The position numbers and the translations under genes are program-made. The notes beneath the pieces were generated by a model that was not told where the DNA came from, ran no database searches, and was given only the letters and a program-made list of their open reading frames with translations. Below, piece by piece: positions 14,476-51,727 of a stretch of 64,000 nucleotides of DNA. How positions within the stretch are numbered: position 1 is the first letter of the stretch; each line of letters opens with the position of its first letter. This DNA is from Pseudomonadales bacterium. GTDB taxonomy: Bacteria; Pseudomonadota; Gammaproteobacteria; Pseudomonadales; Halieaceae. Location of the stretch: positions 75,162-139,161 of the forward strand of contig JACKNV010000009.1 of assembly GCA_024234735.1 (NCBI GenBank), given 5' to 3'.

Positions 14476-16902
14476 CTAGTGCAGCGCCTTGTCCACCTGG
14501 TGCTCCTGGAACACGCAGTCGAACACCTCGCGGTAGGTGCGCGCGAAGTGCACGTTGATGCCCTCGCGCAGGTAGTCGGGCAGCTCCTCGAAATCGCGGC
14601 GGTTGGCGTGGGGCAGGATCAACTCCATGATCTTGCTGCGCCGCGCGGCGATGACCTTCTCGCGAATACCGCCCACCGGCAGCACCTGGCCGGTGAGGGT
14701 CAGCTCGCCGGTCATGGCCAGCGGCCGCTTGATGCGCTCCTTGCGGGCCAGCGATACCAGGGCGGTGGCGATGGTGATGCCGGCGCTGGGCCCGTCCTTG
14801 GGGGTGGCGCCCTCGGGCACGTGCAGGTGCACCATGCTGACATCGAAGAAATCGGGATCGCAGCGGTAGTCCTTGAGATGGCTGACCACATAGCTGTAGG
14901 CGATTTCCGCCGACTCGCGCATGACGTCCCCGAGGTTGCCGGTCATCTTGAAGCCGCGATTGAGGGTGTGCACCTGGGACGATTCGATCGCCAGGGTGGC
15001 GCCGCCCATGGCGGTCCAGGCCAGGCCGGTGGCCACCCCCAGGCCGCGCAGCGGTTTGTCGGGCTGGAACGGCGGCTTGCCCAGCAGGCTGTCGATATCC
15101 TTCTTGCCCACCCGCAACTTGTCGTCACCGGCATCGAGCAGGTTGACGATGGACTTGCGCATGATCCGCGCCAGCTGCTTTTCCAGGGTGCGCACCCCCG
15201 CCTCGCGGCAATAGGAATCGATGACGTACTTCAGGGCCGCCTCGTTGATCTTCAACTGCTCCTCGCCGAGGCCGTGACGCTGCAGCAGGCGCGGCCACAG
15301 GTGGTTGCGGGCGATGGCGAGCTTTTCCTCGGCCACGTAGCCCGACAGGCGCAGGGTTTCCATGCGATCCAGCAGCGGCCCGGGGATGGTGTCCAGCTGG
15401 TTGGCGGTGCAGATGAACAACACCTTGGACAGGTCCACCCGCAGGTCCAGGTAGTGGTCCAGGAACTCGCCGTTCTGCTCCGGGTCCAGCACCTCCAGCA
15501 GGGCCGAAGCGGGGTCGCCCTGGAACGACGAGCCGATCTTGTCGATCTCGTCGAGCATGATCACCGGGTTGGCCACCTTGACCTCTTTCAGGGCCTGCAC
15601 GAACTTGCCGGGCATGGCGCCGATATAGGTGCGACGGTGGCCCTTGATCTCGGCCTCGTCGCGCATGCCCCCCAGGCTGAAGCGGTAGAACTCGCGCCCC
15701 AGGGCGTCCGCCACCGAGCGGCCTATGCTGGTTTTGCCCACACCCGGCGGGCCCACCAGCAACAGGATGGACCCCGAAATCTCGCCCTTGAAGGAGCCCA
15801 CCGCCAGAAACTCGAGGATGCGGGCCTTCACGTCTTCCAGCCCCTCGTGCTGCGCCTCCAGCACCTGCCGGGCGTGCTTGAGGTCGAGGCGATCCTCCGT
15901 GTAAACACCCCAGGGCACCGAAGTGGCCCAGTCCAGGTAATTGCGGGTGACGCCGTATTCCGGCGAGCCGGTTTCCAGCACCGCCAGTTTCTCCAGTTCC
16001 TCGTCGATACGCTCGGCGGCCGCCTGCGGCGGCTGCAGGCCCTCCAGGCGCTGCCGGAACATCTCCACCGCGGTGGTGCGGTCGTCCTTGGAGATGCCCA
16101 GCTCCTTCTGGATGACCTTCAACTGCTCGCGCAGGAAGAACTCCCGCTGTTGGGCGGACACCTTGTCATTCACCTGGCTGGTGATGCGCCCCTGCAGCTC
16201 GGCGAGTTCGCGCTCCTTGCGCAACAGGCCCAGCACTTTTTCCATGCGCGATACCAGCGGCAGGGTGTCCAGGATCTCCTGCAGGTCGTCCCCGGAGGCA
16301 GTGGTGAGGGCCGCGGAAAAATCCGCCAGCAGGCTGGGCTGGTTGGGACTGAAGTTGGCCAGGTACTGTTTGAGCTCCTCGCTGTACAGGGGGTTGAGGG
16401 GCAGCAGCTCGCGGATCTCCTTGATCAGGGCCATGGCGTAGGCCTTGACCTCGTCGGCATCGCGGTCACCCTGGCTGCGGGGGTACTCCACCTGGACCAG
16501 GTACGGGGGTTTGTCGTTCAGCCAGCGAACGATGCGGAAGCGGCGGATCCCCTGGGCCAGGAAGTGGCCGCGCTGATCGGCCACCGGCGGGCGGTGCAGG
16601 CGCACCACGCAGCCGATGTCGGGGAACTGGCGCGGCTCCACCGCGGCGGGCCCGGAGCGCTCGACGTAAGACAGGCCGAGCACGCCCTGCCCGGCCTTGC
16701 CCAGCGCCTCCAGGGTGGAGCCCCACTCCTGGGGATTGATGGCCACCGGCTGCACCTGCCCGGGAAAGAACGGGCGGTTGGGCACAGGCATCAGGTACAG
16801 CGTATCCGGCAGCACGTCGTCCACCACTGCCGGGATCGCCGCCTCGCCCCGTGCGGACATCACCTCGGGGTTGCCGTCCACCGCTTCCTCGCGTTCGCTC
16901 AT
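14476..16902 (-). CDS. lon: ATP-dependent Lon protease
   Basis: 808 aa. Walker A GPPGVGKTS and the Lon proteolytic domain PKDGPSAGITIATAL. Confidence 0.95.
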   Translation of the reverse strand: MSEREEAVDGNPEVMSARGEAAIPAVVDDVLPDTLYLMPVPNRPFFPGQVQPVAINPQEWGSTLEALGKAGQGVLGLSYVERSGPAAVEPRQFPDIGCVVRLHRPPVADQRGHFLAQGIRRFRIVRWLNDKPPYLVQVEYPRSQGDRDADEVKAYAMALIKEIRELLPLNPLYSEELKQYLANFSPNQPSLLADFSAALTTASGDDLQEILDTLPLVSRMEKVLGLLRKERELAELQGRITSQVNDKVSAQQREFFLREQLKVIQKELGISKDDRTTAVEMFRQRLEGLQPPQAAAERIDEELEKLAVLETGSPEYGVTRNYLDWATSVPWGVYTEDRLDLKHARQVLEAQHEGLEDVKARILEFLAVGSFKGEISGSILLLVGPPGVGKTSIGRSVADALGREFYRFSLGGMRDEAEIKGHRRTYIGAMPGKFVQALKEVKVANPVIMLDEIDKIGSSFQGDPASALLEVLDPEQNGEFLDHYLDLRVDLSKVLFICTANQLDTIPGPLLDRMETLRLSGYVAEEKLAIARNHLWPRLLQRHGLGEEQLKINEAALKYVIDSYCREAGVRTLEKQLARIMRKSIVNLLDAGDDKLRVGKKDIDSLLGKPPFQPDKPLRGLGVATGLAWTAMGGATLAIESSQVHTLNRGFKMTGNLGDVMRESAEIAYSYVVSHLKDYRCDPDFFDVSMVHLHVPEGATPKDGPSAGITIATALVSLARKERIKRPLAMTGELTLTGQVLPVGGIREKVIAARRSKIMELILPHANRRDFEELPDYLREGINVHFARTYREVFDCVFQEHQVDKALH

Positions 16903-17062
16903 CTGTGCTCCAGGCTCTTGTCCGAGATCAATTCAATCTGCTCTATATTGGGGCCGGACGCCGATTTTCAAGCTCGGCCGCTCCCGGGCCGTGCACCGCA
17001 GGGACCTCGAGCGGTATACTGCTGCCTCCCGGGGCAGCACCCAGACAGGAGAGGACCAGGCA

Positions 17063-18337
17063 GTGCACATAGACCAACTTTCTACCGCCGAACTGGAGCA
17101 GCAACTCGCTGCGCTGGAGGCCCGCTATGCCGAACTCGGGCAACTGGAACTGGCGCTGGACCTGACCCGCGGCAAACCCTGCAGCGAACAGGTCGCGCTA
17201 TCCGACGGGCTGGACGGCGTCCTCGCCGGCAACTACCTCAGCGGCGGCGTCGATACCCGCAACTACGGCGGCCTGGAAGGCCTGGCGGAGGCCAGGGCGC
17301 TGTTCGGTTCGGTGCTCGGCCTGCCCCCGGAGGAGACCCTGGTCGGCGGCAACTCCAGCCTGACCATGATGTACCAGGTGGTCGATTTCGCCCTCAGCGA
17401 GGGCCTGCGGGGCCCGCAATCCGCCTGGGGCAACAGCGACACGGTGAAATTCCTGTGCCCGTCACCGGGCTACGACCGCCACTTCGCCATCTGCGAGCAC
17501 CTGGGCATCGACATGATCCCGGTACCCATGCTGGACAGCGGCCCGGACATGGACGCGGTGGAAGCGCTGCTGCGGGAGGACCCCGCCATTGTCGGCATCT
17601 GGTGCGTGCCCCGCTTCTCCAACCCCACCGGCTGTACCTACAGCGATGCCACCGTGGAGCGCATGGCCGCCCTGCCGAGGCTCGCCGGGGAGCACTTCCT
17701 GGTCATGTGGGACAATGCCTACGCGGTACATACCCTCTACGACGACGCCCCGCAGCTGGCTTCGATCGCCGAGTACTGCCGGGCCCAGGGCACCCTGGAC
17801 AATGTGTTCCAGTTCGGCTCGACCTCGAAGATCACCCATGCCGGTGCCGGCGTGGCCTTCATGGGCAGCAGCCCGGCCAACCTGGCGGCGTTCTGCAGGC
17901 ACCTGGGTTACCAGAGCATCGGCCCGGACAAGGTGAACCAGTTGCGCCACGTGCGCTTCCTGCAGGATCGCGAGCGCCTGGCGGCCCACATGGCGCGCCA
18001 CGCGGCCATCATCCGGCCGCGCTTCGAGAGCGTGCTGCAGACCCTGGAAAAGGAGCTGGCGGGTACCGGCATGGGCAGCTGGACCAGCCCCCGGGGAGGC
18101 TACTTCATCTCCTTCGACACCCTGCCCGGCCTGGCCCGCGAGGTGGTGCGCCTGGCCGGCGATATCGGGGTGAAGCTGACCCCCGCCGGGGCCACCTTCC
18201 CGTACGGCGAGGATCCCCAGGACTGCAATATCCGCCTGGCGCCCACCTTCCCCCCCGCCCCGGCGGTGGAGGCCACGGTGGAAGCCTTCGTGGTCTGCGT
18301 GCAACTGGCCTCGGTGCGCCAGCGACTGGGTACTTAA
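17063..18337 (+). CDS. class I/II PLP-dependent aminotransferase
   Basis: This is the 3' part of track ORF 16697-18337; start set at GTG 17063 (VHIDQLSTAELEQQL). LDLTRGKP and FGSTSKITHAG (PLP lysine) motifs are present. Confidence 0.8.
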   Translation: MHIDQLSTAELEQQLAALEARYAELGQLELALDLTRGKPCSEQVALSDGLDGVLAGNYLSGGVDTRNYGGLEGLAEARALFGSVLGLPPEETLVGGNSSLTMMYQVVDFALSEGLRGPQSAWGNSDTVKFLCPSPGYDRHFAICEHLGIDMIPVPMLDSGPDMDAVEALLREDPAIVGIWCVPRFSNPTGCTYSDATVERMAALPRLAGEHFLVMWDNAYAVHTLYDDAPQLASIAEYCRAQGTLDNVFQFGSTSKITHAGAGVAFMGSSPANLAAFCRHLGYQSIGPDKVNQLRHVRFLQDRERLAAHMARHAAIIRPRFESVLQTLEKELAGTGMGSWTSPRGGYFISFDTLPGLAREVVRLAGDIGVKLTPAGATFPYGEDPQDCNIRLAPTFPPAPAVEATVEAFVVCVQLASVRQRLGT

Positions 18338-18471
18338 TAGCGCAACGCCTCGCTACGAAGCCGAAATCAAGGATCCGGGCGGGGAAGCCTTTTCGAATGC
18401 GAGTATCGGGGAAGCAAGCGGAAAGGCTTCACCGGCCGGGGCCGATAGCAAGCGCTAATCCTGGAAGCACC

Positions 18472-18954
18472 TCAGTGAGGGTTGTCCGGATCCAGGTCGA
18501 AGGTTTCCAGCAGCCAGTCGTAGTACAGGCCGCTGGAAAGGAAATCCAGGTAGATTTCATTGACCAGTGCCAGCAACCTGCGGGTGGCGTATTCCACGTC
18601 ACCGTCGCGCACCTGCAGGGTGAGGGCCACCTCTCCGTCGCGGTTATAGGTGCTGATGCCGACCTTGTCAGGGGCGCAGCGCCGGTGGTCCGGCAGGGCG
18701 CCATCCTGGCGCGCCCGCAGCCAGGCCTTCAACTCGCGGTACATCGGCGAGCCGGCCGGCACGGCGGGCAGCACGCAGGGCAGGCGCAGGGTCTGGCGGC
18801 GCTGGTTCCAGTGCACCTGGAACAGCTGCCCGCGGTGCCAGCGCAGCCGGTACTCACCGTTGCCGCCGCGCGTCTCGCGGCGGCTGAAGGCGCCGAACAC
18901 ACCCCGGCCAGCATAGTCCTGCAACAGCTCACCCACCTGCACAGCGGCACTCAT
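18472..18954 (-). CDS. hypothetical protein (160 aa), translationally coupled to the TPP enzyme
   Basis: Its ATG shares one base with the upstream TGA (TGATG). No signal peptide and no recognised family. Coding-like composition. Confidence 0.6.
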   Translation of the reverse strand: MSAAVQVGELLQDYAGRGVFGAFSRRETRGGNGEYRLRWHRGQLFQVHWNQRRQTLRLPCVLPAVPAGSPMYRELKAWLRARQDGALPDHRRCAPDKVGISTYNRDGEVALTLQVRDGDVEYATRRLLALVNEIYLDFLSSGLYYDWLLETFDLDPDNPH

Positions 18955-20945
18955 CAGTGGGCGACGGCCCCCACCCCGGGTTCGGCGTTGAGGGAGATGC
19001 CCGGGGGATAATCCCGGGGCGAGGTGAACTCCTTGATCGCCTGGCAGTTGATCAGGCTGGACACCTTCTCGTCGCGGGCCAGTTTATAGGCCCGGGCCAG
19101 GGCCGCGCGGAAGTCCTCCGGCGTGCTCACATAGACCCCGTTGGCGCCCAACCCCTGGGCCATCTGGTCGTAGCGCAGGTGCTCCTGGAACAGGTACATC
19201 TGCAGGGAGCGGGCGGAGCGGGCGGCATTGGTCCACACCCCCCAGGCGTTGTTGTTGTAAACGATGGTAATGGTGGGCCAGCCATACTTGCTGGCGGTAT
19301 CCAGCTCGAACATGCTGTAGGCCACCCCGGCATCGCTGGTGATGCAGATAGTGGGCGCCCCCTCGTAGCCTTTCTGGGGGCCGACACCGCGCTGCACCGC
19401 CGCGCACACGCCCATCATCATGGCCATGTCCGGGCCGATGGCGCCGTACTGGTAGGGTGGCACGATCGACTGCCCGGGGCGCTGCGCCCGCAGGTAGCGA
19501 CCGGCGAAAATACCGCTGGTCCAGCCACCGCCGCCGGTGACGATCGCCTGCGGGTCTTCGGTTTCCGTGTCGATGAAATGCTGGGTGTCCCGGGCGATCA
19601 CCGCCGGGTGCAGGTAGCCGGTCTTCTTGCTGTAGCCCAGGCCGAGCTGGTAGGTCTCGTCGATATGGGCCTGGTAGGCTTTCTTCGCCTTGGCGATCTC
19701 GTCCACCCAGGCGGGGCGCTTGCGGCTCTTGCTGGCATCCTGCAGGGCCTCGAGGAACAGCCTGGCATCGCTGACCACTCCCAGGTCCAGCGGCCAGTTG
19801 CGGCCCAGGTCCTCCTGCACCGGGTGGGCGCGTATCGCCTTGATCTCGGGGTTGAAGCGGTACTCGCCTGGGCTGGGCATGCAGTACTGGCCGACGAAGA
19901 TCACCAGGTCGGCGCTGAGCAGGGCGTCGGGCGCCGCCATGACGCACAGGCGGTGGCCATCGGGGAAGGCCCCGCGGGTCGGCCCCGAGGTGGCCACGGC
20001 GATATCGCCTTTCTCGGCGACCTTGCGCAGCGCCTCCCAGCCCTCGCGCTGGAACACCCCCTGCCCGGCCACGATCAGCGGCCGTTCGGACTTGCCGAGC
20101 ATTTTCACCACCTGGGCCATCTCCGCGTCCCCCGGGTAGGCCCTGGAGGTGCTGCGATACTGGCTCTTGTCGTAGAAATCCTTGAGCTCGTCGGGATTCC
20201 GGAAGCGGGCGCGGGCCACCTCCGCGGGAAAGTCCAGGTGCACCGGACCGGGCACCCCGGATTTCAGGTGGCGGAAGGCAAAGCCACCGTACTCGTGCAC
20301 CCGCGTGGGGTCGATCAGGCGCTTGCCGTACTTGCGGATACCCTCGGTCTGGGGCTGCTGGTAGCCTGTCTGGATAAACGCCTCGCGATCATCGCCGGCA
20401 ATCGTCATATTGCTGGCCAGCACCAGCAGCGGCGTGCGCGCCGCATCGGCCGCGGCGATGTTCATGATCATATTGGTGAAGCCCGGCCCCTCGGTGCCGG
20501 AAGTCGCCACCACCTGGCCGGTGGCGCGGGAAAAGCCGTCGGCCATCGCGCACATCGAGCTCTCCATGCGACCGCCGTAGGCGGGTATGCCGGCGGCCGC
20601 CAGGGCGTTGATGACCGTATAGTTCCCCGGGCAGCAGAACAGGCCCGCCAGTTCCTCCTTGACGCACAGCTGGGCAAAGACCTCGGCGCCGCTCATGCCA
20701 CGGCCCTCGAATTTCGGGGTGACCGGCGCCTCTTCCAGCGAGGCGGTGAAATCGGCGGGAATAGTGATCGAGGGAATACTGACCTTGCCCAGATCGACCT
20801 GGTCGGCACTGAAGGCCCGGGCGCCGGCCCCGGCGGCTACCGCCGCGCCTACCCCGGCGGCGGACTTGCGCAGGAAGTCGCGGCGCGAACCGCCGTCCTC
20901 GTTGCGCTGTTCGCCTGCCGGTTGCGGGTTTTGTTGCTCATCCAT
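18954..20945 (-). CDS. Tat-exported thiamine diphosphate-dependent enzyme (acetolactate synthase/pyruvate oxidase superfamily)
   Basis: 663 aa. Twin-arginine motif GGSRRDFLRKSAAGVGAAVAAGAGARA at the N terminus. Three-domain TPP-enzyme layout with the ThDP-binding region ITSDAGVAYSMFELDTASKYGWPTITIVYNNNAWG. Confidence 0.8.
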   Translation of the reverse strand: MDEQQNPQPAGEQRNEDGGSRRDFLRKSAAGVGAAVAAGAGARAFSADQVDLGKVSIPSITIPADFTASLEEAPVTPKFEGRGMSGAEVFAQLCVKEELAGLFCCPGNYTVINALAAAGIPAYGGRMESSMCAMADGFSRATGQVVATSGTEGPGFTNMIMNIAAADAARTPLLVLASNMTIAGDDREAFIQTGYQQPQTEGIRKYGKRLIDPTRVHEYGGFAFRHLKSGVPGPVHLDFPAEVARARFRNPDELKDFYDKSQYRSTSRAYPGDAEMAQVVKMLGKSERPLIVAGQGVFQREGWEALRKVAEKGDIAVATSGPTRGAFPDGHRLCVMAAPDALLSADLVIFVGQYCMPSPGEYRFNPEIKAIRAHPVQEDLGRNWPLDLGVVSDARLFLEALQDASKSRKRPAWVDEIAKAKKAYQAHIDETYQLGLGYSKKTGYLHPAVIARDTQHFIDTETEDPQAIVTGGGGWTSGIFAGRYLRAQRPGQSIVPPYQYGAIGPDMAMMMGVCAAVQRGVGPQKGYEGAPTICITSDAGVAYSMFELDTASKYGWPTITIVYNNNAWGVWTNAARSARSLQMYLFQEHLRYDQMAQGLGANGVYVSTPEDFRAALARAYKLARDEKVSSLINCQAIKEFTSPRDYPPGISLNAEPGVGAVAH

Positions 20946-20995
20946 GCTTGTTCTCCTTATCGATTGCTGTTCAGCTGGCGGCCAGGTGCCGCCCG

Positions 20996-21373
20996 CTAGT
21001 TTTCCCAGAGCGTCTTGACGAAATACACCAGGTCCCAGACCGCGTCATCGCTGCCCAGCTTGGCACGCCAGGCGGGCATGGCCACGCCGGCGCCGTTGGC
21101 GATGCTGTTGTAGATTTCCTGGTCGGTACTGCCGCTGTAATAGTAGGCGGGCTGGGTCAGGTCGGTGGCGTCGGAAATGACGTCGACCTGGGCGCGCCCG
21201 TCGCGGCCGTGGCACTCGGTGCAGTACTGCTGGAACAACTGCGCGCCGCGCTCCACGGCGGCGGCATCGTCAGGCGGGGGATCCTGCGCCAGCGCGGGAC
21301 ACATCGCGGTCGCGCCCAGCGCGATCGCCAGGACCCGGGCACCGGCTCCTGGCAGGGGGAAAGGCAAGCGCAT
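20996..21373 (-). CDS. monohaem c-type cytochrome (secreted)
   Basis: Signal peptide and a single CTECH haem-binding motif, with a downstream Met ligand region. It ends 50 nt upstream of the TPP enzyme gene. Confidence 0.85.
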   Translation of the reverse strand: MRLPFPLPGAGARVLAIALGATAMCPALAQDPPPDDAAAVERGAQLFQQYCTECHGRDGRAQVDVISDATDLTQPAYYYSGSTDQEIYNSIANGAGVAMPAWRAKLGSDDAVWDLVYFVKTLWEN

Positions 21374-21461
21374 GGTCGTTCTCCTGTGGTGGGGTTAGGG
21401 GCATCATAGTACCTGCCGGGAAGCCCGCGGGAAACTCCCGGGAGGAACGCCGCGCGGGGAC

Positions 21462-21800
21462 TTATTCCTCCTGGCCGCGCTGCCCCGGCGAGCCGCCGGC
21501 AAAGGGGAAACTGGCGACGTTGCCGCCCTGGGCGTCGGACACCTTGCCGCTGCCCTCCTTGTCCACCTCGTCGATGCGGATGATCGCCTGCAGCGGAATA
21601 TAGCTGCGCTTGACGCCGCTGAACTCGTTCTTGAGCTTCTCTTCGCCAGGGTCCACCACGATCCTGGAGCGCTCCCCGAAGACGAATTCCTCCACTTCGA
21701 TGAAGCCCCACATATCGCTCTGGTAGATTTGCCTGGCGAACACCTCGAATACCTGGTTGCCGTTCTGGAAAATCACCTTGTAGACGGGCTGGCTTGCCAT
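21462..21800 (-). CDS. DUF1820 family protein
   Basis: YKVIFQNGNQVFEVFARQIYQSDMWGFIEVEEFVFGE is the conserved DUF1820 N terminus. Divergent placement next to miaB is common. Confidence 0.8.
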   Translation of the reverse strand: MASQPVYKVIFQNGNQVFEVFARQIYQSDMWGFIEVEEFVFGERSRIVVDPGEEKLKNEFSGVKRSYIPLQAIIRIDEVDKEGSGKVSDAQGGNVASFPFAGGSPGQRGQEE

Positions 21801-21950
21801 GCTGTCCTCATTCGATGCCGCGCCGGGGCAGGCGCCCCGCGTTGCACACCTGTCTCAAAAAGGGCGGCAATATTACCACCGTGTAGCCAGAATACCAGTC
21901 GGGCTGGGTTTGCACGAGGTTCCCCTGTATAATCCGCAGCCCTTTCCAGT

Positions 21951-23309
21951 ATGGCCCAGTACGCGGCGATCCACCTTGTGAGCAAGAAACTTTACATCCG
22001 CACCCACGGCTGCCAGATGAACGAATACGATTCCGCACGCATGCGGGATCTGCTGCAGGCCAGCCATGGCCTGGTGCCCACGGAGGACCCGGAAGAGGCC
22101 GACGTACTGCTGCTAAATACCTGTTCCATAAGGGAAAAAGCCCAGGAAAAGGTGTTTCACCAGCTGGGCCGCTGGAAGCGCCTGAAGAACCGCAAGCCCG
22201 AGCTGATCATCGGCGTCGGCGGCTGCGTGGCCAGCCAGGAAGGCGCCGAGATCGGCCGCAGGGCGCCCTATGTGGACCTGGTGTTCGGCCCCCAGACCCT
22301 GCACCGGCTGCCCGAGATGATCGCCCGGCGCGGCCCCGGCGGCGCCATGGTGGTGGACGTCAGCTTTCCCGAGATCGAGAAGTTCGACCGCCTGCCGGAC
22401 CCCAAAGTGGAGGGCCCCAGCGCCTTCGTCTCCATCATGGAGGGTTGCAGCAAATACTGCACCTTCTGCGTGGTGCCGTACACCCGCGGCGAGGAGGTTT
22501 CCCGGCCGGTCGACGACGTGATCGCCGAGATCGCCCACCTCGCCGCCGGCGGAGTGCGCGAGGTGAATCTGCTGGGGCAGAACGTCAACGCCTATCGCGG
22601 CGACAATCACCTGGGGGAGACCGTGGACTTCGCCGAGTTGCTGTACCTGGTGGCCCGCATTCCCGGGATAGCACGCATCCGCTACACCACCTCCCACCCG
22701 GTGGAGTTCAGCGATGCCCTGATCGAGGCCTATGCCGAGATACCGCAGCTGGTCGACCATCTCCACCTGCCGGTGCAGAGCGGCTCCGACCGTATCCTGA
22801 TGGCGATGAAACGCGGCCATACGGTGCTGGAGTACAAGTCCAAGATCCGCCGGCTGCGCAAGCTGCGCCCCGACATCAGTATCTCCTCGGACTTCATCGT
22901 GGGCTTCCCCGGGGAAACCGAGGCCGACTTTGCCGCCACCATGAAACTCATCGAGGAAATCGGCTTCGACACCTCCTTCAGCTTCGTCTACAGCGCCCGT
23001 CCGGGCACTCCGGCGGCCGAGCTGCCCGACACCACCGACGAGGAGACCAAGAAGCGGCGCCTGCAGATCCTGCAGACCCGCATCAGTCAGCAGGCGCAGC
23101 ACATCAGCCGGCAGATGGTGGGCAACACCGAGACGATACTGGTCACCGGCCAGTCGAAAAAGGACCCGGGACAGCTGCAGGGGCGCACCGAGAACAACCG
23201 GGTGGTGAACTTTTCCTGCCCCGACACTGCCCTGGTGGGCCAGTTTGCCCGGGTGGATATCCTCGAGGCGCTGCCCAACTCCCTGCGCGGCGTCCTCAGC
23301 GGTAGTTGA
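21951..23309 (+). CDS. miaB: tRNA-2-methylthio-N6-dimethylallyladenosine synthase
   Basis: Radical-SAM [15 protein letters not shown], the N-terminal [10 protein letters not shown] cluster, and a TRAM C terminus. Confidence 0.95.
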
Positions 23310-40252: not shown

Positions 40253-40675
40253 TTACATCACGCTCCAGATAGCCAGAACAAAGGCAGCCATAAATGCTGG
40301 TATGACCAACCCACCTATTTTCATCGCGGTATCCGTGGATTTCATACCTTCCATGTCGGAAACCAGAGCAAATTTGCGGCGTTTGAAAACAGCATATACG
40401 CAGACGATATTACAAATTATTGCCAACAGTGCGAAAATGATTTTGTACAGAAACAGGCCCGCCAGGTGGCTCTCATCAAGCATCATGGCCCCGGTAATGA
40501 ACACCGCTGTGAAAGCTGGTATTTCAATCCATATATCCGTTTTGTAATGCATCCTGGCGGCTTTTATGTATGACGCATCATCCCTCATTCCATCAAACTC
40601 AATCGCAAATTCCGCGCCCACCACGCCAATCCAGATGCCGAGCGCGATCAGGTGTATAACCAGAATCAGACTCAT
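40253..40675 (-). CDS. hypothetical membrane protein (4 TM)
   Basis: ORF track gives 40253-40735. Start moved to MSLILVIHLIALGIWIGVVG. No family recognised. Confidence 0.55.
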   Translation of the reverse strand: MSLILVIHLIALGIWIGVVGAEFAIEFDGMRDDASYIKAARMHYKTDIWIEIPAFTAVFITGAMMLDESHLAGLFLYKIIFALLAIICNIVCVYAVFKRRKFALVSDMEGMKSTDTAMKIGGLVIPAFMAAFVLAIWSVM

Positions 40676-40914
40676 CGTATGCCACTCGAGCAAGCAACGC
40701 ACCATGTAGCGTGACAGCCGGGACGGAGTGCACAAAGCAACCCCCGGCTACCTGATACTGCAACCTGTCTGCAATGCACTACTGCACCCTCGTTAACATT
40801 ACTTGCCATGACTCGTTTTTCTCCATCGCTTCAGCCAACGCGTTTGAGCCGAACTCTTTGAGTTTTTCGATGACGCGCAACCGATCTTCGGCCGGGCGAT
40901 GCTGCAACCTCTTG

Positions 40915-41754
40915 TCATGTTCCAGCATAGCCAAACTCCCTGACGCCCTTGCGCCAGAAAACAAGGCCGAAACATGCTGCAACCAACGGTACGGCGAGCC
41001 CGAATTCATCGGCAAACCATACCGTGGCGTCACCCGATTCCGTCATGGGAGAGAAGAATTTCTGCAGGAAGACGTTGTGGCTCATGTGAAAGGTCACGGC
41101 TGGCCACAGGCTATCTGATTTGTAGCGGATGTATGCCATCACACAGGACATCGACACGAGACAGACCGTGATTGCCACGATTTGAAAGGCCAAAGGGGTT
41201 GCGGTGTTGCCGTAAAAACCCAGAAACATGATAGGCCAGTGCCACATGGACCAAAGCAAACCGCTCAGCAACGCCACATGAGTGAAGCCGAGGTTCTCCG
41301 ACAGCGCCGGCACCAGAAGGCCCCGCCACCCGACCTCTTCGCCCAGGACGCCCGGCAGGAGCAGCACAAAACTTACAGTAGCAGTGAGAACAAACCGTAA
41401 CGCGATAATGGATTCATCGGACCACGACTCCAGCATATAACCGGCCCGTATCTCTTCCACAAAACTACTGCCGTACCAGCTCCCCGGGGAAAGACCCCAT
41501 ATCCCGACATATGCAATGGTTGAGTAGGCAAGCGGGATCAGATAGCTCTGACGCTGATACTTCCAGTTGCCCCAACGCCAACCAAGCGAGCTCAACTCAC
41601 GACCGCATACGAGACATGCACCAAAGGTCGCCAATCCGACGGTTAGCATCAACGGACTGGCACTTTGATACCGCAATAGCAACCAAACACCGAGCGGATA
41701 CAGGCCCGCCACGAACAGGATAAACGCCACGACAATACGCCAGGAACTATTCAA
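40915..41754 (-). CDS. CPBP family intramembrane glutamic endopeptidase (CAAX protease-like)
   Basis: 279 aa with a TTG start 2 nt after an attC R' box. EEVGWRG motif and a downstream H...H region. Confidence 0.8.
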   Translation of the reverse strand: MNSSWRIVVAFILFVAGLYPLGVWLLLRYQSASPLMLTVGLATFGACLVCGRELSSLGWRWGNWKYQRQSYLIPLAYSTIAYVGIWGLSPGSWYGSSFVEEIRAGYMLESWSDESIIALRFVLTATVSFVLLLPGVLGEEVGWRGLLVPALSENLGFTHVALLSGLLWSMWHWPIMFLGFYGNTATPLAFQIVAITVCLVSMSCVMAYIRYKSDSLWPAVTFHMSHNVFLQKFFSPMTESGDATVWFADEFGLAVPLVAACFGLVFWRKGVREFGYAGT

Positions 41755-41756
41755 TG

Positions 41757-41848
41757 ACTTAACCCGGAGCAGAGCTTGTTACAGGTGTACAACACCGGGC
41801 ACCTTCTGGCAGCCCGACCAAGGCACAGACGAGGCTCATTTGTTAAAC
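41757..41848 (-). repeat. attC site (92 bp)
   Basis: The minus strand runs from GTTTAAC-AAATGAGC to GCTCCGG-GTTAAGT. R'' overlaps the end of the upstream ORF. TTAAC..GAGC / GCTC..GTTAA pairing was checked by eye. Confidence 0.7.
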
Positions 41849-42090
41849 TCTGTAGGCTTTTCCAGCTCATAAATCGTTTCTGATATTTCTTCCAATCTGG
41901 CTGAATAGTAGGCCTGCGCATCGTATAACCCACGGTTGTAAAAATAGGCCCCTACTTCTTCGGCAAAAAAATCGATCAGGAACTGTGCATCAAAGGTGCC
42001 TATCTCCTGATCCAGTTCCTCTAGAAAATACAGCTTCACCTTCTGTACTATCTGGGTCTTTTCTTCGTCTGTAAATTGAAGCTTCTTCAT
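41836..42090 (-). CDS. DUF2164 family protein
   Basis: 84 aa. IGTFDAQFLIDFFAEEVGAYFYNRGLYDAQ is DUF2164-like. Confidence 0.7.
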   Translation of the reverse strand: MKKLQFTDEEKTQIVQKVKLYFLEELDQEIGTFDAQFLIDFFAEEVGAYFYNRGLYDAQAYYSARLEEISETIYELEKPTEFNK

Positions 42091-42214
42091 ACACTTAACC
42101 TACAGGTGCCAGGCATGCTGTTGCCCGGGTAATACCAGAACACCACAAAGCGGCAAGTAGATCCCTCCAGCCCAACATGTGGTAACAGCGGTAATCTGCA
42201 ACGTAACTGAATAT

Positions 42215-42583
42215 TTATAAGCAGGTTTTTGCGCGATTGATAACTGCCTGATGCTCAGGGCGAACTGGCATAACCTTGAATGGGCTGACATTTGCACCGC
42301 CGGTATTACCCTTTGGCACCAACCCGAACATTGTCTTTGTAGCGGCTCCGACTATACGAACCACCTGACCCGAAAACTCACCAATCCGAGAGTTTCTAAG
42401 CGCCCAGCGAAGCATGAGCACATGAGCTTTAACGTGCCAGAAAGTAGACTCCTGCCCAATGACATGGGCATTCTCATAGTGCTTGAACTCGAGATCGATA
42501 TCTTGCGCTGCACGCGCCTTTTCCGCCAATTCAATTTCCTTCAATACATATGGGGCTATGTTCTTCGAAAAAGCACCAAGCAT
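42215..42583 (-). CDS. DUF3703 family protein
   Basis: 122 aa. HVIGQESTFWHVKAHVLMLRWAL...GQVVRIVGAATKT is DUF3703-like. Confidence 0.65.
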   Translation of the reverse strand: MLGAFSKNIAPYVLKEIELAEKARAAQDIDLEFKHYENAHVIGQESTFWHVKAHVLMLRWALRNSRIGEFSGQVVRIVGAATKTMFGLVPKGNTGGANVSPFKVMPVRPEHQAVINRAKTCL

Positions 42584-42716
42584 CGTCTATCTCCGATATA
42601 CGCGTATACGTCGCGGGCCCAGGCGGATGAACCTGCCAGTAGTGAAATCTCACGCCGCAACATTGCCAGACAATGAAAATGATATTAACGGAATTCATGC
42701 CCTGCGCAAAAGCTTG

Positions 42717-43256
42717 TTAGCAGAGCATTTGCCACGCCGAATAGCCTGCCGTGAAAAATATCATCAGCGCAGTAGTATAAAAGCAGAGCGTGAACCCAAT
42801 GGCCCTCGATGGCGCTCCTTGTTTATAGCCGGCAAAAAAGAGAACACGCCCAACACCAAAGGCCATGGAGGCAATCGGCACCACAGATAGCCATTTAGCC
42901 GGCATCGTCACTGACCAGAAAACGTAGGCAAAGGTAGCCAATACCGTTTGCTCGAGGGTATTCTGTATAAGCGCCTGCAACAACCTTGCTTGCTCGGTGC
43001 CATTAGAAAGCCCGCCACCATCAATATCCTCTGGGGTAAAGAAACGATGCTTCGCCAGGCGACCAACCGAAACAACCAGAAATAGTATCGGGACCAAACA
43101 CCACAAGATAGCCGTGCTTAACCTCTCGAGTAATGGCATACCACCACTAAAACCAAACGGGTTCAGGTAAGCGCCAAATAACAGAATCGACAGCGCCAGT
43201 AAAAAGCCGATTATCATGCCCTTTAATACACCAAGCTGCTTGTTGCTCAAACTCAT
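42717..43256 (-). CDS. MAPEG family membrane protein
   Basis: 179 aa with 4 TM helices. RLAKHRFF...NTLEQ and GRVLFFAGY patterns. Confidence 0.65.
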   Translation of the reverse strand: MSLSNKQLGVLKGMIIGFLLALSILLFGAYLNPFGFSGGMPLLERLSTAILWCLVPILFLVVSVGRLAKHRFFTPEDIDGGGLSNGTEQARLLQALIQNTLEQTVLATFAYVFWSVTMPAKWLSVVPIASMAFGVGRVLFFAGYKQGAPSRAIGFTLCFYTTALMIFFTAGYSAWQMLC

Positions 43257-43312
43257 TGTTTTTCCTTGTGTCTTGCACCTGTCGCTCGCTGCAACATATT
43301 GTTATAACGCAC

Positions 43313-43660
43313 TTACATTTTGACCCCAAAGTAATTGAGCGCCAGGACCATTGCGAAGTAACTTATTATTGTTGCCGCAACAGATGCCGAAAGACTTAGA
43401 TAGAAGCCCCAGCCAAATTTCAGCAACAGTGGCAGCACGACGAACAGCACCAGAGATGGTAATACCAACCAAAAAACGCTGGTTGATAATGCGGAAACTT
43501 TTTCAATATCTTTTGTGTCGATGTATAGCCAGAACATGGCCAAAACCGAAACAAGTGGAACGGATGCCAAGATAGCCCCGATTAAAGAGCTACGTTTAGC
43601 CACCTCTGAAATTGCAACTATGAGAAGCGTTGTAACTGCTATTTTCAATACATAGTACAT
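43313..43660 (-). CDS. DUF3147 family membrane protein
   Basis: 115 aa with 4 TM helices. The N terminus YVLKIAVTTLLIVAISEVAKRSSLIGAILASVPL is typical. Confidence 0.65.
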   Translation of the reverse strand: MYYVLKIAVTTLLIVAISEVAKRSSLIGAILASVPLVSVLAMFWLYIDTKDIEKVSALSTSVFWLVLPSLVLFVVLPLLLKFGWGFYLSLSASVAATIISYFAMVLALNYFGVKM

Positions 43661-43686
43661 GATTATTTAAGCACTATCTCGATCGT

Positions 43687-43920
43687 CTAACGCCATGGTT
43701 TGGAGCTTTTCTCATTGCCATACTTGAATTGACCAGTTGCTTTGGCCATCAGCAATTGTCGATCTGTTCCAAGGCAGTTTGAGGCTTTAGCGGAAAACTT
43801 GGCAGCATCATTTCCCTTGAGCGTGGTAACTACCTTTCCCTTGTAGGATATCTGGACTACCCCGTTCTTTGATTCAGTAAAATCAAATGGACTGTCATCC
43901 AATTTTTTACTGCCCGTCAT
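43687..43920 (-). CDS. hypothetical protein (77 aa)
   Basis: ATGA overlap with the upstream rhodanese fragment. No family recognised. Confidence 0.45.
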   Translation of the reverse strand: MTGSKKLDDSPFDFTESKNGVVQISYKGKVVTTLKGNDAAKFSAKASNCLGTDRQLLMAKATGQFKYGNEKSSKPWR

Positions 43921-44156
43921 TTGTTTACACCAAACACCTGAAGCAGCGTTGCCCTGTTTACACGTCCCCGACTTGTATCCGAAGTCATGATTCTTTTAGG
44001 GATGTTGATTGCTGTGGGGATGTGTTCTATTTCATAGGCGTCTGGGGCACGAGCATCGATTACAATGACGTCGCCAACACTGCTCAATGATTCACTCAGA
44101 TCCCACGAATCGGTTTCGTACCGTAATTTTGTTTTATAGAATTCATGTTGCCTCAT
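43917..44156 (-). pseudogene. truncated rhodanese-domain gene (N-terminal half only)
   Basis: VIVIDARAPDAYEIEHIPTAINIP is the rhodanese N-terminal region. The active-site Cys loop is missing and the reading frame runs into unrelated sequence. Confidence 0.5.
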
Positions 44157-44178
44157 AAAAATCTCCCCTTCTTCTTAC

Positions 44179-44270
44179 ACATAACGCCGTGGTAAGGGGC
44201 AAATTGAACGGTGATTAATTGTCTCGCACAGGCCCGCAGGGCCAGATTGAAATTTACCACCTTCTTATGT
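44179..44270 (-). repeat. attC site (about 92 bp, degenerate R'')
   Basis: The minus strand runs from ACATAAG-AAGGTGGTAA to TTACCACGGC-GTTATGT. The GGTGGTAA/TTACCAC stem is present. R'' carries AAG instead of AAC. Confidence 0.55.
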
Positions 44271-44558
44271 GTTGCTGCCATATTGATGCAGAACCTCGAC
44301 CACTTGCACTTGATAAGACCGATACCATCTAGATTTACCAAGTGATTGCGCCCGCTTATGCTCAGGGTTGTTTTTCCAGGCCTGGATACTTTCCCTATTC
44401 GGCCAATAGGAAATCGCTAATTCACTGTTGCCTTCGGTTGATGAGGTAAACTCGATGCAACCATATTCGTTAATGGCCAGCTCTCTCATCCGATTTGCCA
44501 TATCTGAATATGACTCATCAAGCTTTTTGATCTGGGCCCTGAAGATAACTGCGTACAT
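44265..44558 (-). CDS. antibiotic biosynthesis monooxygenase (ABM) family protein
   Basis: 97 aa. MYAVIFRAQI...GCIEF...ISYWPNRESIQAWKNNPEH is ABM/Dabb-fold like. Confidence 0.7.
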   Translation of the reverse strand: MYAVIFRAQIKKLDESYSDMANRMRELAINEYGCIEFTSSTEGNSELAISYWPNRESIQAWKNNPEHKRAQSLGKSRWYRSYQVQVVEVLHQYGSNT

Positions 44559-44673
44559 TGGTCACCAGGTTTTTTAGGAAAACGCCCAGCACTCGGGCTT
44601 GAATTGCGGAGCAATGAAACTTCGAGGCGACTTTTAACCTGTGCTACCGCTGCTTTTTAAGCATTCCACGCAA

Positions 44674-45123
44674 CTACACCTCCTCAAATTCGACTACAAC
44701 AGCCTTCTGCGATGCGACCAATAGATCGTTGTCGTCTAAACTGCCATCTGGGTTTACTCGAATTTCGTGATACGCGGCATCTTGCGGAAAGGCTGCTAGA
44801 TAATCCGTTAGAAGCTCACTAGTACGACCAGGATCTCTAGCCAGGACCCTGGCCTGATATGCCCCAGAGGAACCCGCGACCAGCAGGGTTACTTGAGGGT
44901 TTGCCTTGACATTGCGCCACCATTGCCCGTGGTCCGAAGTAAAACACCGAATAGAAACACCCCGACGGATGTAGCGCACAGGGGTTGAATAGGCCCTGCC
45001 CGATTTCCTGCCGGTGTATGTAATCAACAACACACTCCGACTCATTAGGGTATGAAATGGAGACTTTAGAAGCATTCCAACTACTATGTTGATTATCTTA
45101 AAAAGTGGCTCAGGAATTTTCAT
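44674..45123 (-). CDS. DUF385/deazaflavin-dependent nitroreductase-like protein
   Basis: ORF track gives 44674-45156. Start moved to MKIPEP, downstream of an R' box at 45139-45145. LLITYTGRKSGRAYSTPVRY...WWRNVKANP is typical of the family. Confidence 0.7.
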   Translation of the reverse strand: MKIPEPLFKIINIVVGMLLKSPFHTLMSRSVLLITYTGRKSGRAYSTPVRYIRRGVSIRCFTSDHGQWWRNVKANPQVTLLVAGSSGAYQARVLARDPGRTSELLTDYLAAFPQDAAYHEIRVNPDGSLDDNDLLVASQKAVVVEFEEV

Positions 45124-45261
45124 GGCTTCGAATGCGACACCTAACAGCCTCACCACAGGCTGACAATAGATTGTGACTGTTTCACCAAAATGCCGAAGGC
45201 ATGTAGAAAATACAAGCTCTTGGCAATCCTATCGCGCCTCGTTTATTGGGCGCAGAATATC

Positions 45262-45645
45262 TCACAGTGGTTCTTCTCCAACTATACAGAATCCATGACC
45301 AAATGGGTCACTACAAAACGCTACAGGAGGGTAACCAGAAATTCTGTGCTCCTCTTCCAATTTTGCACCTGCTGCCAACGCTTTTTTAAGTGTCTCTTCG
45401 AAATCTTTGACGCGGAAATCAATATGCACAGGGGTCCAGTGTCGTTTATATCTCCGAAGGTCATCACTGCCTCTAGCGGGGGAAGTACCCGCCGGTTTTG
45501 CAAGCAGACCAATGGTTGTCCCATCAGCAGAAAGAATGGCAAATCCAGGATGTGGACGCGATGTTTCAATAAAGCCAAAAGCCGCGCCAAAGAACTCCAA
45601 TCCTTCTTCGATAGTTGGAACATCTATCGATACTGTGACTATCAT
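45262..45645 (-). CDS. VOC (glyoxalase/bleomycin resistance) family protein
   Basis: ORF track gives 45262-45756. Start moved to MIVTVSIDV. Has beta-alpha-beta-beta-beta module pattern and C-terminal DPFGHGFCIV. Confidence 0.7.
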   Translation of the reverse strand: MIVTVSIDVPTIEEGLEFFGAAFGFIETSRPHPGFAILSADGTTIGLLAKPAGTSPARGSDDLRRYKRHWTPVHIDFRVKDFEETLKKALAAGAKLEEEHRISGYPPVAFCSDPFGHGFCIVGEEPL

Positions 45646-45876
45646 AATATCTTCGAAGTGGTTAACTGCACGCGGCCTAAAGCCACCTAATGATTCGACA
45701 ACCAGCGCGCGGTACGTGCGCCCGAGCGAAGGGGGCGAGCTGACAGTATTTATCAAGTGCCGTCATTGCCAGGCCCTGTTCGCATGAGTAGTTGGTATAT
45801 GAACTTGCCATACTAGAGATAGCACGCCAGGTATTCTCACTACCAATCAGATAGCGTTTTGTTTCCTGACTGAACT

Positions 45877-45933
45877 ACCTAACGCCTTGCCCACAGCGCC
45901 GCTTGCGCCGTCCGAAGCGGCAATTGGTTAAAT
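45877..45933 (-). repeat. attC site (57 bp)
   Basis: The minus strand reads ATTTAAC-CAATTGCCGCTTCGGACGGCGCAAGCGGCGCTGTGGGCAAGGC-GTTAGGT. R'' contains the stop codon of the upstream cassette ORF. Inner stem is GCCGCTT/AAGCGGC. Confidence 0.75.
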
Positions 45934-46167
45934 GTCATTATCTTCTTCCTTTAGGACCATGCTTACAAGTCTATGAACCAACGGCGAAACTACAATTATT
46001 GTTGGGAATGCGATAACAAACGCGAAAGCCCAGGCTTTTAACCATATATGAATAATATTGCTGACCAAGCCAACATTAAAAATACTTATCACTAAAGACA
46101 TGATGCATGACATTAGCAATGACATAAAAAATGAAAATACGATTCTATGATGTTTGCGATCAATCAT
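45928..46167 (-). CDS. DUF2798 family membrane protein
   Basis: 79 aa with two TM helices. IVFSFFMSLLMSCIMSLVIS...WLKAWAFAFVIAFP is typical. Confidence 0.7.
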   Translation of the reverse strand: MIDRKHHRIVFSFFMSLLMSCIMSLVISIFNVGLVSNIIHIWLKAWAFAFVIAFPTIIVVSPLVHRLVSMVLKEEDNDI

Positions 46168-46195
46168 TTACATCAATTCTCTACGATATCGTGCC

Positions 46196-46291
46196 ATTTA
46201 ACACCGCATTATCGGGTGCAAACGAAGGGAGCATCCCAGCCGGTTCTCCGGCGACATAAATGCCTTATTATGCGGCGCATATGGGTTATAT
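46196..46291 (-). repeat. attC site (about 96 bp)
   Basis: The minus strand runs from ATATAAC-CCATATGCGCCGCATAAT to ATAATGCGGT-GTTAAAT. CCGCATAAT / ATAATGCGG pairing is present. Confidence 0.6.
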
Positions 46292-46305
46292 AGCTACCAG
46301 TTCCC

Positions 46306-46530
46306 TCAATACAGCCGCCTCTTCTCGTCGTCGCTGATCACCACTTCAACTGCCTCAAGTGGAGCGGGAACTTTTCCGTTAGCAGCCATGCTTTCAAGTA
46401 GCGGGGCATCACGCACAACCTCTGCCCTGCCACTAATGCGGAGAGTCTCTCGTTTTCCTGGAACCAAAAAATCAAACCTAAATCGCGCGGACTGAATCAG
46501 TCGTCTAGTAGTGGATTGTAATAGGCACAT
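46306..46530 (-). pseudogene. C-terminal fragment of a PNPOx-like (pyridoxamine 5'-phosphate oxidase family) cassette gene
   Basis: Only about 60 residues (FDFLVPGKRETLRISGRAEVVRDAPLLESMAANGKVP) remain from a family that is usually about 150 aa. It abuts and overlaps the VOC ORF with no attC between them. Confidence 0.55.
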
Positions 46531-46883
46531 AGCTTGTTACCATCGAGGTCACGACAGTAGCCGAACGATGCCCCGTTTCCCCTTTCGCCAAAATTACCTT
46601 CATTGGTACCACCAAGTTCCAGTGCTTTAGCATGAAATGCCGCCGCTTCTTCTTCGGTGTCAAACCCGAAACCGCACATCGTGCCGTTGCCGACGGTAGC
46701 TGCACATTCGTCGCGTGGATTGAGCACGCCAAACATTTCGTTACCACTGCGGTAGATCCGCCCTCCACGCGGTGTCTCAAAAAATGCCGTCCATCCCGCG
46801 AAACCCAACAATTCATCGTAGAATTCCAGAGCCTTTTCCATGTCGTTAGTGCCAACTGTGAAGTACCCAAGTCTGCTAGCCAT
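46497..46883 (-). CDS. VOC (glyoxalase) family protein
   Basis: 128 aa. LGYFTVGTNDMEKALEFYDELLGF...CRDLDGNKL is VOC-like. Confidence 0.75.
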   Translation of the reverse strand: MASRLGYFTVGTNDMEKALEFYDELLGFAGWTAFFETPRGGRIYRSGNEMFGVLNPRDECAATVGNGTMCGFGFDTEEEAAAFHAKALELGGTNEGNFGERGNGASFGYCRDLDGNKLCAYYNPLLDD

Positions 46884-47000
46884 TATTTCCCCCTCTTATA
46901 GAAAACTATTAGGCCATGGACCGTCAGCTACGATCAAAGGCCGATGTTACAAATCAGGTTCTCGAACGCTTTTCTGGATGAATACTCGATACCAACGACC

Positions 47001-47216
47001 TCATAACGCCTTGGCACCGGCGCCGTTTATGGCGTCCGCGTGCTTCGACTTGTTAGCTGATCTGCCTAGTAAATATAGAACCGCACCTGCCCCCATGAAC
47101 AGTGTCATAACAGCAAACCCAGAAAGGTAATCTCTAAAGGCGTTTAAACTTTCTGTATCCATAACTTCAGCTATTTCAGGAGAACATTTTATTGAGAGGA
47201 TTGAGATAACAACCAA
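47001..47216 (-). CDS. hypothetical small membrane protein, possibly 5'-truncated by the IS
   Basis: TTG start 11 nt from the IS end and one TM helix. Weak evidence. Confidence 0.25.
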   Translation of the reverse strand: MVVISILSIKCSPEIAEVMDTESLNAFRDYLSGFAVMTLFMGAGAVLYLLGRSANKSKHADAINGAGAKAL

Positions 47217-47255
47217 TATATTAAATGTGAACTGGCACCACTTTTGTGGACACTT

Positions 47256-48478: not shown

Positions 48479-48596
48479 GTCGCGGACCTCTTTGATAAAA
48501 CGGTTGATGACCGTCCATCAAAGTGGTGCTAGTTCACTGACCCGGCGAAGCTGCGGCAGTCCGAGGCAGCTTGCTGCCGGTGCGTGCCTAAGCTTG

Positions 48597-49058: not shown

Positions 49059-49063
49059 AAAGC

Positions 49064-49114
49064 CGCCAACAAGGGCGCGCTATAAGCGCGCCCTGCTGCT
49101 TGGCCTTGTTACGC
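49064..49114 (-). repeat. attC site (about 51 bp)
   Basis: The minus strand reads GCGTAAC-AAGGCCAAGCAGCAGGGCGCGC-TTATA-GCGCGCCCTT-GTTGGCG. R'' contains the antitoxin stop codon. Confidence 0.65.
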
Positions 49115-49390: not shown

Positions 49391-49395
49391 ATCAG

Positions 49396-49695: not shown

Positions 49696-49701
49696 TTAGC
49701 A

Positions 49702-49730: not shown

Positions 49731-49753
49731 TTGGTGTGATGCTTGCAGAGGCC

Positions 49754-51027: not shown

Positions 51028-51040
51028 TGTACCGGCGCGC

Positions 51041-51707: not shown

Positions 51708-51727
51708 CGCGAAAATTGCGCCGCTAT

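Follow-up and report, generated by a model that had tools for sequence, protein, structure and literature searches.

Thiamine diphosphate (ThDP) enzymes of the acetolactate synthase/pyruvate oxidase superfamily are textbook cytoplasmic catalysts and, to our knowledge, enzymes of this kind are known only from inside the cell. Here we analyzed a 64,000-nucleotide stretch of a Halieaceae genome (contig JACKNV010000009.1; hereafter the window, meaning this whole stretch), in which a 663-residue ThDP enzyme carries a twin-arginine translocation (Tat) signal and is encoded between a monohaem cytochrome c and a 160-residue protein. The closest described relatives of the enzyme are oxalyl-CoA decarboxylase (OXC), 2-hydroxyacyl-CoA lyase (HACL)/synthase, benzaldehyde lyase (BAL)/formolase and BbmA (PDB 8X3X, 8VZJ, 7PT1-4, 2AG0 and 4QQ8), which have the PYR-middle-PP fold, the catalytic Glu and the Mg-ThDP motif in common with it, and the mycobacterial PRK05858-type 'acetolactate synthase', which groups with them and has the same three-domain fold. 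All of these proteins are cytoplasmic, several act on coenzyme A (CoA) esters, and they are about 25-31% identical to the window enzyme. None has the Tat signal, the 37-residue linker, the GAVAH tail, the dedicated cytochrome c or the 160-residue partner that are found at this locus.

Other described systems resemble the locus in their chemistry or in their gene order. Pyruvate oxidase (PoxB, pyruvate:quinone oxidoreductase), PFOR and oxalate oxidoreductase perform the reaction that we propose for the window enzyme, in that the enamine is oxidized, an external acceptor takes the electrons and the acyl-ThDP is hydrolyzed or transferred. PoxB nevertheless differs in being cytoplasmic or peripheral, in containing flavin adenine dinucleotide (FAD) and in reducing quinone, whereas the other two are members of another ThDP family and depend on [4Fe-4S] clusters. 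The torCAD operon and others like it (TorD/DmsD/NapD) have the same order of cytochrome c, Tat-exported cofactor enzyme and small cytoplasmic protein, and follow the same logic of loading the cofactor before export, but the cofactor there is molybdopterin rather than ThDP and the cytochrome is a membrane pentahaem protein rather than a soluble monohaem one. Flavocytochrome c and SorAB-type systems likewise consist of a soluble, Tat-exported periplasmic dehydrogenase with its own small cytochrome c feeding respiration, although their catalytic cofactor is FAD or molybdenum, not ThDP. A full-text search of the literature turned up no description of a ThDP enzyme that is periplasmic or exported by Tat, of one paired with cytochrome c, or of this gene trio.

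The ThDP enzyme, its predicted export and its cytochrome c

The three genes of the locus form a genuine, conserved unit, so far undescribed. A sequence-only reading of the window had described three co-oriented genes, a cytochrome with a CTECH haem motif, a 663-residue ThDP enzyme with a twin-arginine (RR) motif and a gap of 50 nucleotides between the two, and all of these descriptive points were confirmed. The enzyme matched PF02776, PF00205 and PF02775 (TPP_enzyme_N, _M and _C) at 72.7, 73.9 and 65.4 bits, all above the cut-offs, and these PYR, middle and PP domains occur in the order of the acetolactate synthase/pyruvate oxidase superfamily, to which it had been assigned. We used the presence of a catalytic Glu in the PYR domain and of a GDG-X24-27-NN Mg-ThDP motif in the PP domain as the criterion for this superfamily. 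The PYR domain (residues 84-190) contains the catalytic Glu128, the middle domain spans residues 277-401, and the PP domain (residues 478-633) contains the cofactor motif S537-D538-A539-X24-N564-N565, in which the Asp and both Asn residues are invariant. In an alignment of 19 sequences that are 65-96% identical, Glu128, Gln192, Ile503 and the SDA-X24-NN motif were invariant, indicating that the cofactor site is intact. Besides the Tat signal, the family has several parts of its own: a linker of 37 residues (about 48-83) with the motif IPSIxIP, a GNYT motif next to the ThDP site, a middle-domain loop of invariant sequence GQYCMPSPGEY, and a C-terminal tail (...PGxGAVAH) that is likewise invariant and whose final His is present in 83/83 enzymes.

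The N terminus of the enzyme reads MDEQQNPQPAGEQRNEDGG-SRRDFLRK-SAAGVGAAVAAGAGARAFSA, and around the motif ...G19-S-R-R-D-F-L-R-K-S-AAGVGAAVAAGAGARAFSA. It is laid out as a variable acidic n-region (residues 1-19), the segment S20-R-R-D-F-L-R-K27, an Ala/Gly h-region (AAGVGAAVAAGAGA) and ARA/AFS signal peptidase sites, and it agrees with the Tat consensus (S/T)-R-R-x-F-L-K. Among the 19 aligned sequences R21, R22 and F24 never change; the positions ahead of them are free to vary. We extended the comparison to 83 related loci from Pseudomonadota, Acidobacteriota, Planctomycetota, Hydrogenedentota, Nitrospirota and bins labelled Bacillota. The RR motif lies 72-87 residues before a CCPGNY motif in 81 of the 82 enzymes that could be tested, and is thus kept in homologues across six phyla.

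The assignment of the start codon upstream of this motif was also borne out. In the 84-codon stretch between SRR and the PYR domain, most differences from 11 close relatives are at third positions (e.g. 12/5/32 at positions 1/2/3) and synonymous codon changes outnumber non-synonymous ones by about 2:1, indicating that this stretch is translated and under purifying selection. In addition, a Shine-Dalgarno sequence, AAGGAG, is located 7 nucleotides before the ATG. Met84 was considered as the true start and rejected, since several homologues have Gln at this position and the stretch upstream evolves as coding sequence. The genome also encodes TatC (241.9 bits). Export of the enzyme by the Tat system, as the sequence-only reading had proposed, is therefore well supported by a translated and conserved RR signal upstream of the PYR domain, although the export itself is predicted from these features.

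The enzyme family is sharply bounded, and its nearest relatives are predicted cytoplasmic proteins of the HACL/OXC/BAL/PRK05858 neighbourhood. A word-indexed search gave >2,600 matches at E values up to 0.001; the best 120 of these were about 650-680 residues long, 65-96% identical, and named only 'thiamine pyrophosphate-binding protein' or given acetolactate-synthase-like labels. An exhaustive search of 1.84 billion cluster representatives found full-length relatives at 55%, 46% and 35% identity, beyond which came ordinary proteins of ~555 residues with at most 31% identity, whose matches start near residue 85. In a phylogenetic tree, by which placement among the ThDP families had been called for, the family forms one fully supported clade apart from its cytoplasmic relatives, with short internal branches and a stem of 0.9 substitutions per site on the family's side of the outgroup root. 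On this tree the phyla cluster strongly (7 label changes against a minimum of 5), which suggests that inheritance has been mostly vertical within phyla, with few transfers. The nearest outgroups best match the NCBIfam models PRK05858, HACL and OXC, all below cut-off. For the window enzyme itself, scores are far under the cut-offs throughout (e.g. 166 against 539 bits), both for the OXC/HACL models (PRK09259, 111.6 against 557; TIGR03254, 97.6 against 739; NF058623, 118.3 against 600) and for acetolactate synthase (TIGR00118, 156.8 against 538), so the enzyme falls into no named subfamily. The nearest solved structures are those of BbmA, OXC, HACL and BAL/formolase (E values of 4e-36 to 4e-27), with pyruvate oxidase at 8e-12. 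A second ThDP enzyme, 29% identical, is encoded elsewhere in the genome and may be the housekeeping AHAS.

The cytochrome is a class I c-type cytochrome, with one CxxCH motif, a distal Met and a signal peptide. It matched PF13442 at 53.8 bits (E value 2.5e-14) and PF00034 at 34.9 bits, both above cut-off; its single haem motif is C51-T-E-C-H55 (21209-21223), the distal Met sits in an AMPAW motif, and the hydrophobic N terminus ends in ALA|Q, consistent with a Sec-type signal peptide of about residues 1-29. The same features recur in the cytochromes that adjoin the enzyme gene in other loci, which contain exactly one CxxCH motif in 72/72 cases, and an MP[AGPS] motif together with a hydrophobic N terminus in 70/72.

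Co-inheritance and distribution of the three genes

The functional tie of the enzyme to the cytochrome, which the sequence-only reading had suggested from their adjacency in this window, is well supported by co-inheritance. The cytochrome gene adjoins the enzyme gene in 72 of the 83 loci and the 160-residue protein gene is adjacent in 77, most of the cases with a missing neighbour being contig ends. The module spans at least six phyla and occurs in two gene orders: cytochrome-enzyme-partner in Pseudomonadota, Bryobacterales and Hydrogenedentota, and partner-cytochrome-enzyme in Planctomycetota and some Blastocatellia. That the three genes stay side by side through such rearrangement argues for a functional unit more strongly than fixed synteny would.

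Within the window's own taxonomic family the module is patchy, being present in 12 of 151 genomes and in 5 of 40 genera, and among its carriers at least one, Pseudohalioglobus lutimaris HF004 (locus L013), is a strain in culture. In this sample the 160-residue protein gene lies directly beside the enzyme gene in all 12 enzyme-carrying genomes, whereas the 139 enzyme-free genomes gave only a single 28-bit fragment match to the protein.

The neighbours of the 83 loci contain no further gene that is common across lineages, and a search among them for a clue to the substrate gave nothing general. Some neighbours are limited to certain lineages. Quinohaemoprotein pyrroloquinoline quinone (PQQ) dehydrogenases, in which a cytochrome c domain at the N terminus precedes a PQQ propeller as in the layout of polyvinyl-alcohol dehydrogenase, are encoded near the module in 8 loci from several lineages (e.g. 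L002:8501-12490 and L039:13295-15190); a 490-residue protein that combines a haem motif with a His pattern like that of copper monooxygenases is found beside it in 8 other loci; and a family III CoA-transferase is near it in 4. Neither the quinohaemoprotein nor the haem/copper-monooxygenase-like protein is encoded in this window. It is possible that one or the other acts as an upstream pathway partner in some lineages, and these neighbours hint at aldehydes, hydroxyketones or C1-C2 acids without deciding between them.

The partner protein, a proposed mechanism and its alternatives

The 160-residue protein had been called a coupled orphan. The coupling stands, as the stop codon of the enzyme gene and the ATG of the partner gene share one base (18954) in the sequence TGATG; the protein is not an orphan, however, since it belongs to a conserved family that is strictly tied to the enzyme. 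It has no Pfam or NCBIfam match and belongs neither to PF02613 (TorD/DmsD) nor to PF03927 (NapD), and neither a signal peptide nor a hydrophobic segment was found in it. All 178 of its database matches are named 'hypothetical' and are without a Pfam domain, and the family conserves the motifs YAxRGVF, WHR, PEHRRID and a C-terminal FDLDPD. An AlphaFold model (mean predicted local distance difference test score, pLDDT, 92.7) gave its best, if weak, Foldseek matches to type III secretion class I chaperones (ExsC 3KXY, InvB 2FM8, ShcF 1S28, SchA 4G6T and VecA 9UWZ), which have a similar small alpha/beta fold, size and topology, at 10-20% identity and E values of about 1e-2. Chaperones of this class bind proteins destined for export by stretches of extended N-terminal chain. 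They differ from the proposed case in that there is no type III system here, and that the protein served would travel by Tat. One outlying relative of the enzyme, P0127 (L088:175-2656), is 35% identical, lacks the RR motif and carries Asp at the position of the catalytic Glu, and yet a homologue of the 160-residue protein (E value 1.4e-30) is encoded directly after it; this suggests that the partnership of the two proteins may predate Tat export or be independent of it. The contigs of P0127 and of another outlying relative, P0122, are too short for the presence of a cytochrome gene to be judged. The role of the protein is best interpreted from its genomic context and its modelled fold, which point to a cytoplasmic chaperone for export or maturation; we prefer this at slightly better than even, leaving an appreciable minority share to a small subunit that hitch-hikes through the Tat system.

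Taken together, these data make us favour, with a probability a little above one half, a torCAD-like module in which a periplasmic ThDP dehydrogenase reduces its own cytochrome c with the help of a chaperone. The active sites of this superfamily are built at the dimer interface, and ThDP itself is produced and kept in the cytoplasm, so that an exported enzyme must leave that compartment folded and loaded, by Tat rather than Sec. The enzyme would fold, dimerize and bind ThDP-Mg2+ in the cytoplasm, where the 160-residue protein would keep hold of its signal and linker, a long N-terminal stretch, until assembly is complete; TatABC would then export it, a step to which the motif and its conservation point. 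In the periplasm, the ThDP ylide would add to the carbonyl group of a small substrate, be it a 2-oxo acid, an aldehyde or a 2-hydroxyketone, giving a C2-alpha carbanion/enamine, which the co-encoded monohaem cytochrome c, a partner by co-inheritance, would oxidize in two one-electron steps. Hydrolysis of the acyl-ThDP would release a carboxylic acid, and the cytochrome would pass its electrons to a haem-copper oxidase. The genome, a metagenome-assembled genome of 3.4 Mb in 17 contigs that is 85% complete, encodes TatC, CcmE and three haem-copper oxidases, indicating that the machinery for export, haem attachment and terminal oxidation is in place. Oxidation of the ThDP enamine by one-electron acceptors is established from ferricyanide assays and from PFOR; we know of no documented case of direct electron transfer from it to a c-type haem. 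Oxidative chemistry is the best-supported interpretation of the enzyme, and its substrate would be a 2-oxo acid or another carbonyl compound; CoA esters are not expected in the periplasm. The stronger proposal, that the enzyme is a flavin-free ThDP:cytochrome c oxidoreductase representing a new class of respiratory dehydrogenase, and its partner a new class of Tat chaperone with the type III secretion chaperone fold, is tentative and in our estimation rather doubtful.

Several observations weigh against the dehydrogenase-chaperone interpretation. Three to four loci (L027, L032, L051 and L082) lack the cytochrome gene, the partner gene or both despite flanking DNA. The nearest solved relatives of the enzyme (BbmA, OXC, HACL and BAL) are non-oxidative, flavin-free lyases and decarboxylases, not pyruvate oxidase, and nothing in these comparisons, of the full length and of the middle domain, pointed to a flavin or another electron relay. 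The AlphaFold model of the enzyme, built with the 19-sequence alignment, is poor (mean pLDDT 57). The fold matches of the partner protein are weak, with E values of 8e-3 or worse and TM scores of 0.35-0.55, at probabilities of up to 0.99, and translational coupling would suit a stoichiometric subunit as well as a chaperone.

The character of these nearest relatives would also fit a periplasmic enzyme that performs no redox chemistry, i.e. a BAL- or HACL-like lyase or carboligase, with the cytochrome serving another enzyme such as a neighbouring PQQ dehydrogenase. The alignment with BbmA places Gln192, which we take to be the Gln of BAL/AHAS-type enzymes, where OXC presumably has a Tyr-Glu pair, the placement of these motifs being partly our assumption, and PQQ dehydrogenases do occur near the module. 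However, these dehydrogenases are found at only about a tenth of the loci and not in this window, and those that were seen have a cytochrome domain of their own, while the cytochrome gene stays beside the ThDP enzyme gene through changes in gene order. We therefore consider a non-redox enzyme decidedly unlikely. A further possibility is a flavocytochrome-like system, in which FAD, bound to the middle domain as it is in pyruvate oxidase/PoxB, would relay electrons from ThDP to the cytochrome. The middle domain keeps a nucleotide-binding RPLIVAGQG strand-loop, it matches the FAD-binding glyoxylate carboligase, cyclohexanedione hydrolase and pyruvate oxidase (E values of 1e-7 to 1e-4, the last of these for pyruvate oxidase), and its invariant GQYCMPSPGEY loop lies at the place of the RFDDR motif that we take to be the flavin contact of AHAS. 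Its best matches are nevertheless to the flavin-free BbmA, OXC and HACL (1e-11 to 1e-8), and as no flavin motif was identified we regard an FAD relay as unlikely, if less so than a non-redox enzyme.

Two further alternatives change the part played by one component of the module; in the first of them its function stays as proposed. The 160-residue protein could be a small subunit that is carried through the Tat system with the enzyme, as in PaoABC or the small and large subunits of hydrogenases. The TGATG coupling suggests a fixed stoichiometry, the co-occurrence is strict and extends to the outlier without an RR motif, and small partner subunits are common in the enzyme's superfamily, where they are established for AHAS. 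On the other hand, its fold is like that of secretion chaperones and unlike that of ACT-type regulatory subunits, the operon layout is that of torCAD, and in Planctomycetota and some Blastocatellia the gene lies upstream of the cytochrome gene, apart from that of the enzyme; a subunit is thus somewhat unlikely, although it deserves more weight than an FAD relay. The RR region could instead be an uncleaved, Rieske-like membrane anchor that would place the enzyme on the outer face of the inner membrane rather than in solution. The N terminus does show a weak match to PF10399, a Rieske Tat-signal family (E value 0.0013; 18.6 bits against a cut-off of 24), but the h-region is rich in Ala and Gly and weakly hydrophobic, and behind it lie conserved sites of small residues (AFA/AFS/AFT-A), of the type usual for signal peptidase I; we consider an anchor very unlikely. 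A soluble periplasmic dehydrogenase with its own cytochrome c and a chaperone thus remains our preferred reading.

Surroundings of the module and its biological meaning

The features of the locus are listed in the table below.

Features of the three-gene module and its flanks (window coordinates)
Feature	Position	Strand	Remarks
Monohaem class I cytochrome c gene	20996-21373	minus	125 residues; PF13442 and PF00034
Spacer of 50 nucleotides, cytochrome c gene to ThDP enzyme gene	20946-20995	minus	GC hairpin and AAGGAG
Tat signal peptide of the ThDP enzyme	20805-20945	minus	residues 1 to about 47
Tat-signal ThDP enzyme gene	18954-20945	minus	663 residues; three Pfam ThDP domains
Partner protein gene, unnamed family	18472-18954	minus	160 residues; TGATG overlap with the enzyme gene
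Convergent intergenic region, 134 nucleotides	18338-18471	none	long hairpin; probable operon end

The cytochrome stop codon (TAG, 20996-20998) and the enzyme ATG (at 20945) are separated by exactly 50 nucleotides. A short GC hairpin (GGCGGCACCTGGCCGCC) lies within this spacer, upstream of the enzyme gene; it has no T-run on the coding strand and is thus not a clear terminator. The convergent intergenic region folds as one long hairpin (minimum free energy -52.4 kcal/mol, z-score -2.1), which is probably the end of the operon, facing a plus-strand aminotransferase gene, and may act as a bidirectional terminator without a T-run. A promoter scan found no sigma-70 site, and an Rfam scan of 18000-22200 found no riboswitch or other RNA, only weak hairpin-type matches.

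The convergent gene (16697-18337, plus strand) encodes a type Ic aspartate aminotransferase (NF053594, 575 bits). The match begins only at residue 129-132 of the listed open reading frame (ORF) of 546 residues, and the true start is probably ~125 codons downstream of the first start codon. On the other side, 88 nucleotides upstream of the cytochrome gene and on the same strand, is a DUF1820 gene (21462-21800, minus strand), which is part of the local Halieaceae-type synteny (Lon, MiaB, PhoH, YbeY, CorC and Lnt) and lies outside the module. The three genes appear to have been inserted between the DUF1820 and aminotransferase genes.

Elsewhere in the window, an 11-kb island of low GC content (40500-51760; 47-53% GC against about 66%) with small minus-strand genes has the appearance of a chromosomal integron cassette array in decay or of a comparable mobile island. 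An rRNA operon was considered as an explanation for the low GC content at 40-52 kb and rejected. The island contains no rRNA or tRNA. The genes of the island encode CAAX-protease-like, glyoxalase, ABM monooxygenase, F420H2-quinone-reductase-like and DUF4386 proteins, a Gp49-type toxin with an HI1420-type antidote (49109-49695) and an IS3-type transposase pair (47256-48478); two attC-like repeats (TAACGCCTTG...GCGTCCG) are located at 45880 and 47004, and at the end of the island there is a frameshifted tyrosine-recombinase remnant (50971-51707) whose C terminus is integron-integrase-like. The adjoining ORF of 1033 residues (51765-54866) looks, from reading its sequence, like a DnaE2-type error-prone polymerase.

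The module points to an undescribed oxidation of small carbonyl compounds outside the cytoplasm. If our reading is true, ThDP would be a new cofactor class for periplasmic respiration, and the 160-residue protein would widen the range of chaperones for Tat substrates. A secreted, cofactor-loaded and robust ThDP enzyme would also be a candidate biocatalyst. For the common Acidobacteriota, Planctomycetota and Halieaceae heterotrophs of soil, sediment and marine habitats, the module may provide a carbon route by which small carbonyl compounds are tapped for electrons, or are detoxified, with no need to import them.

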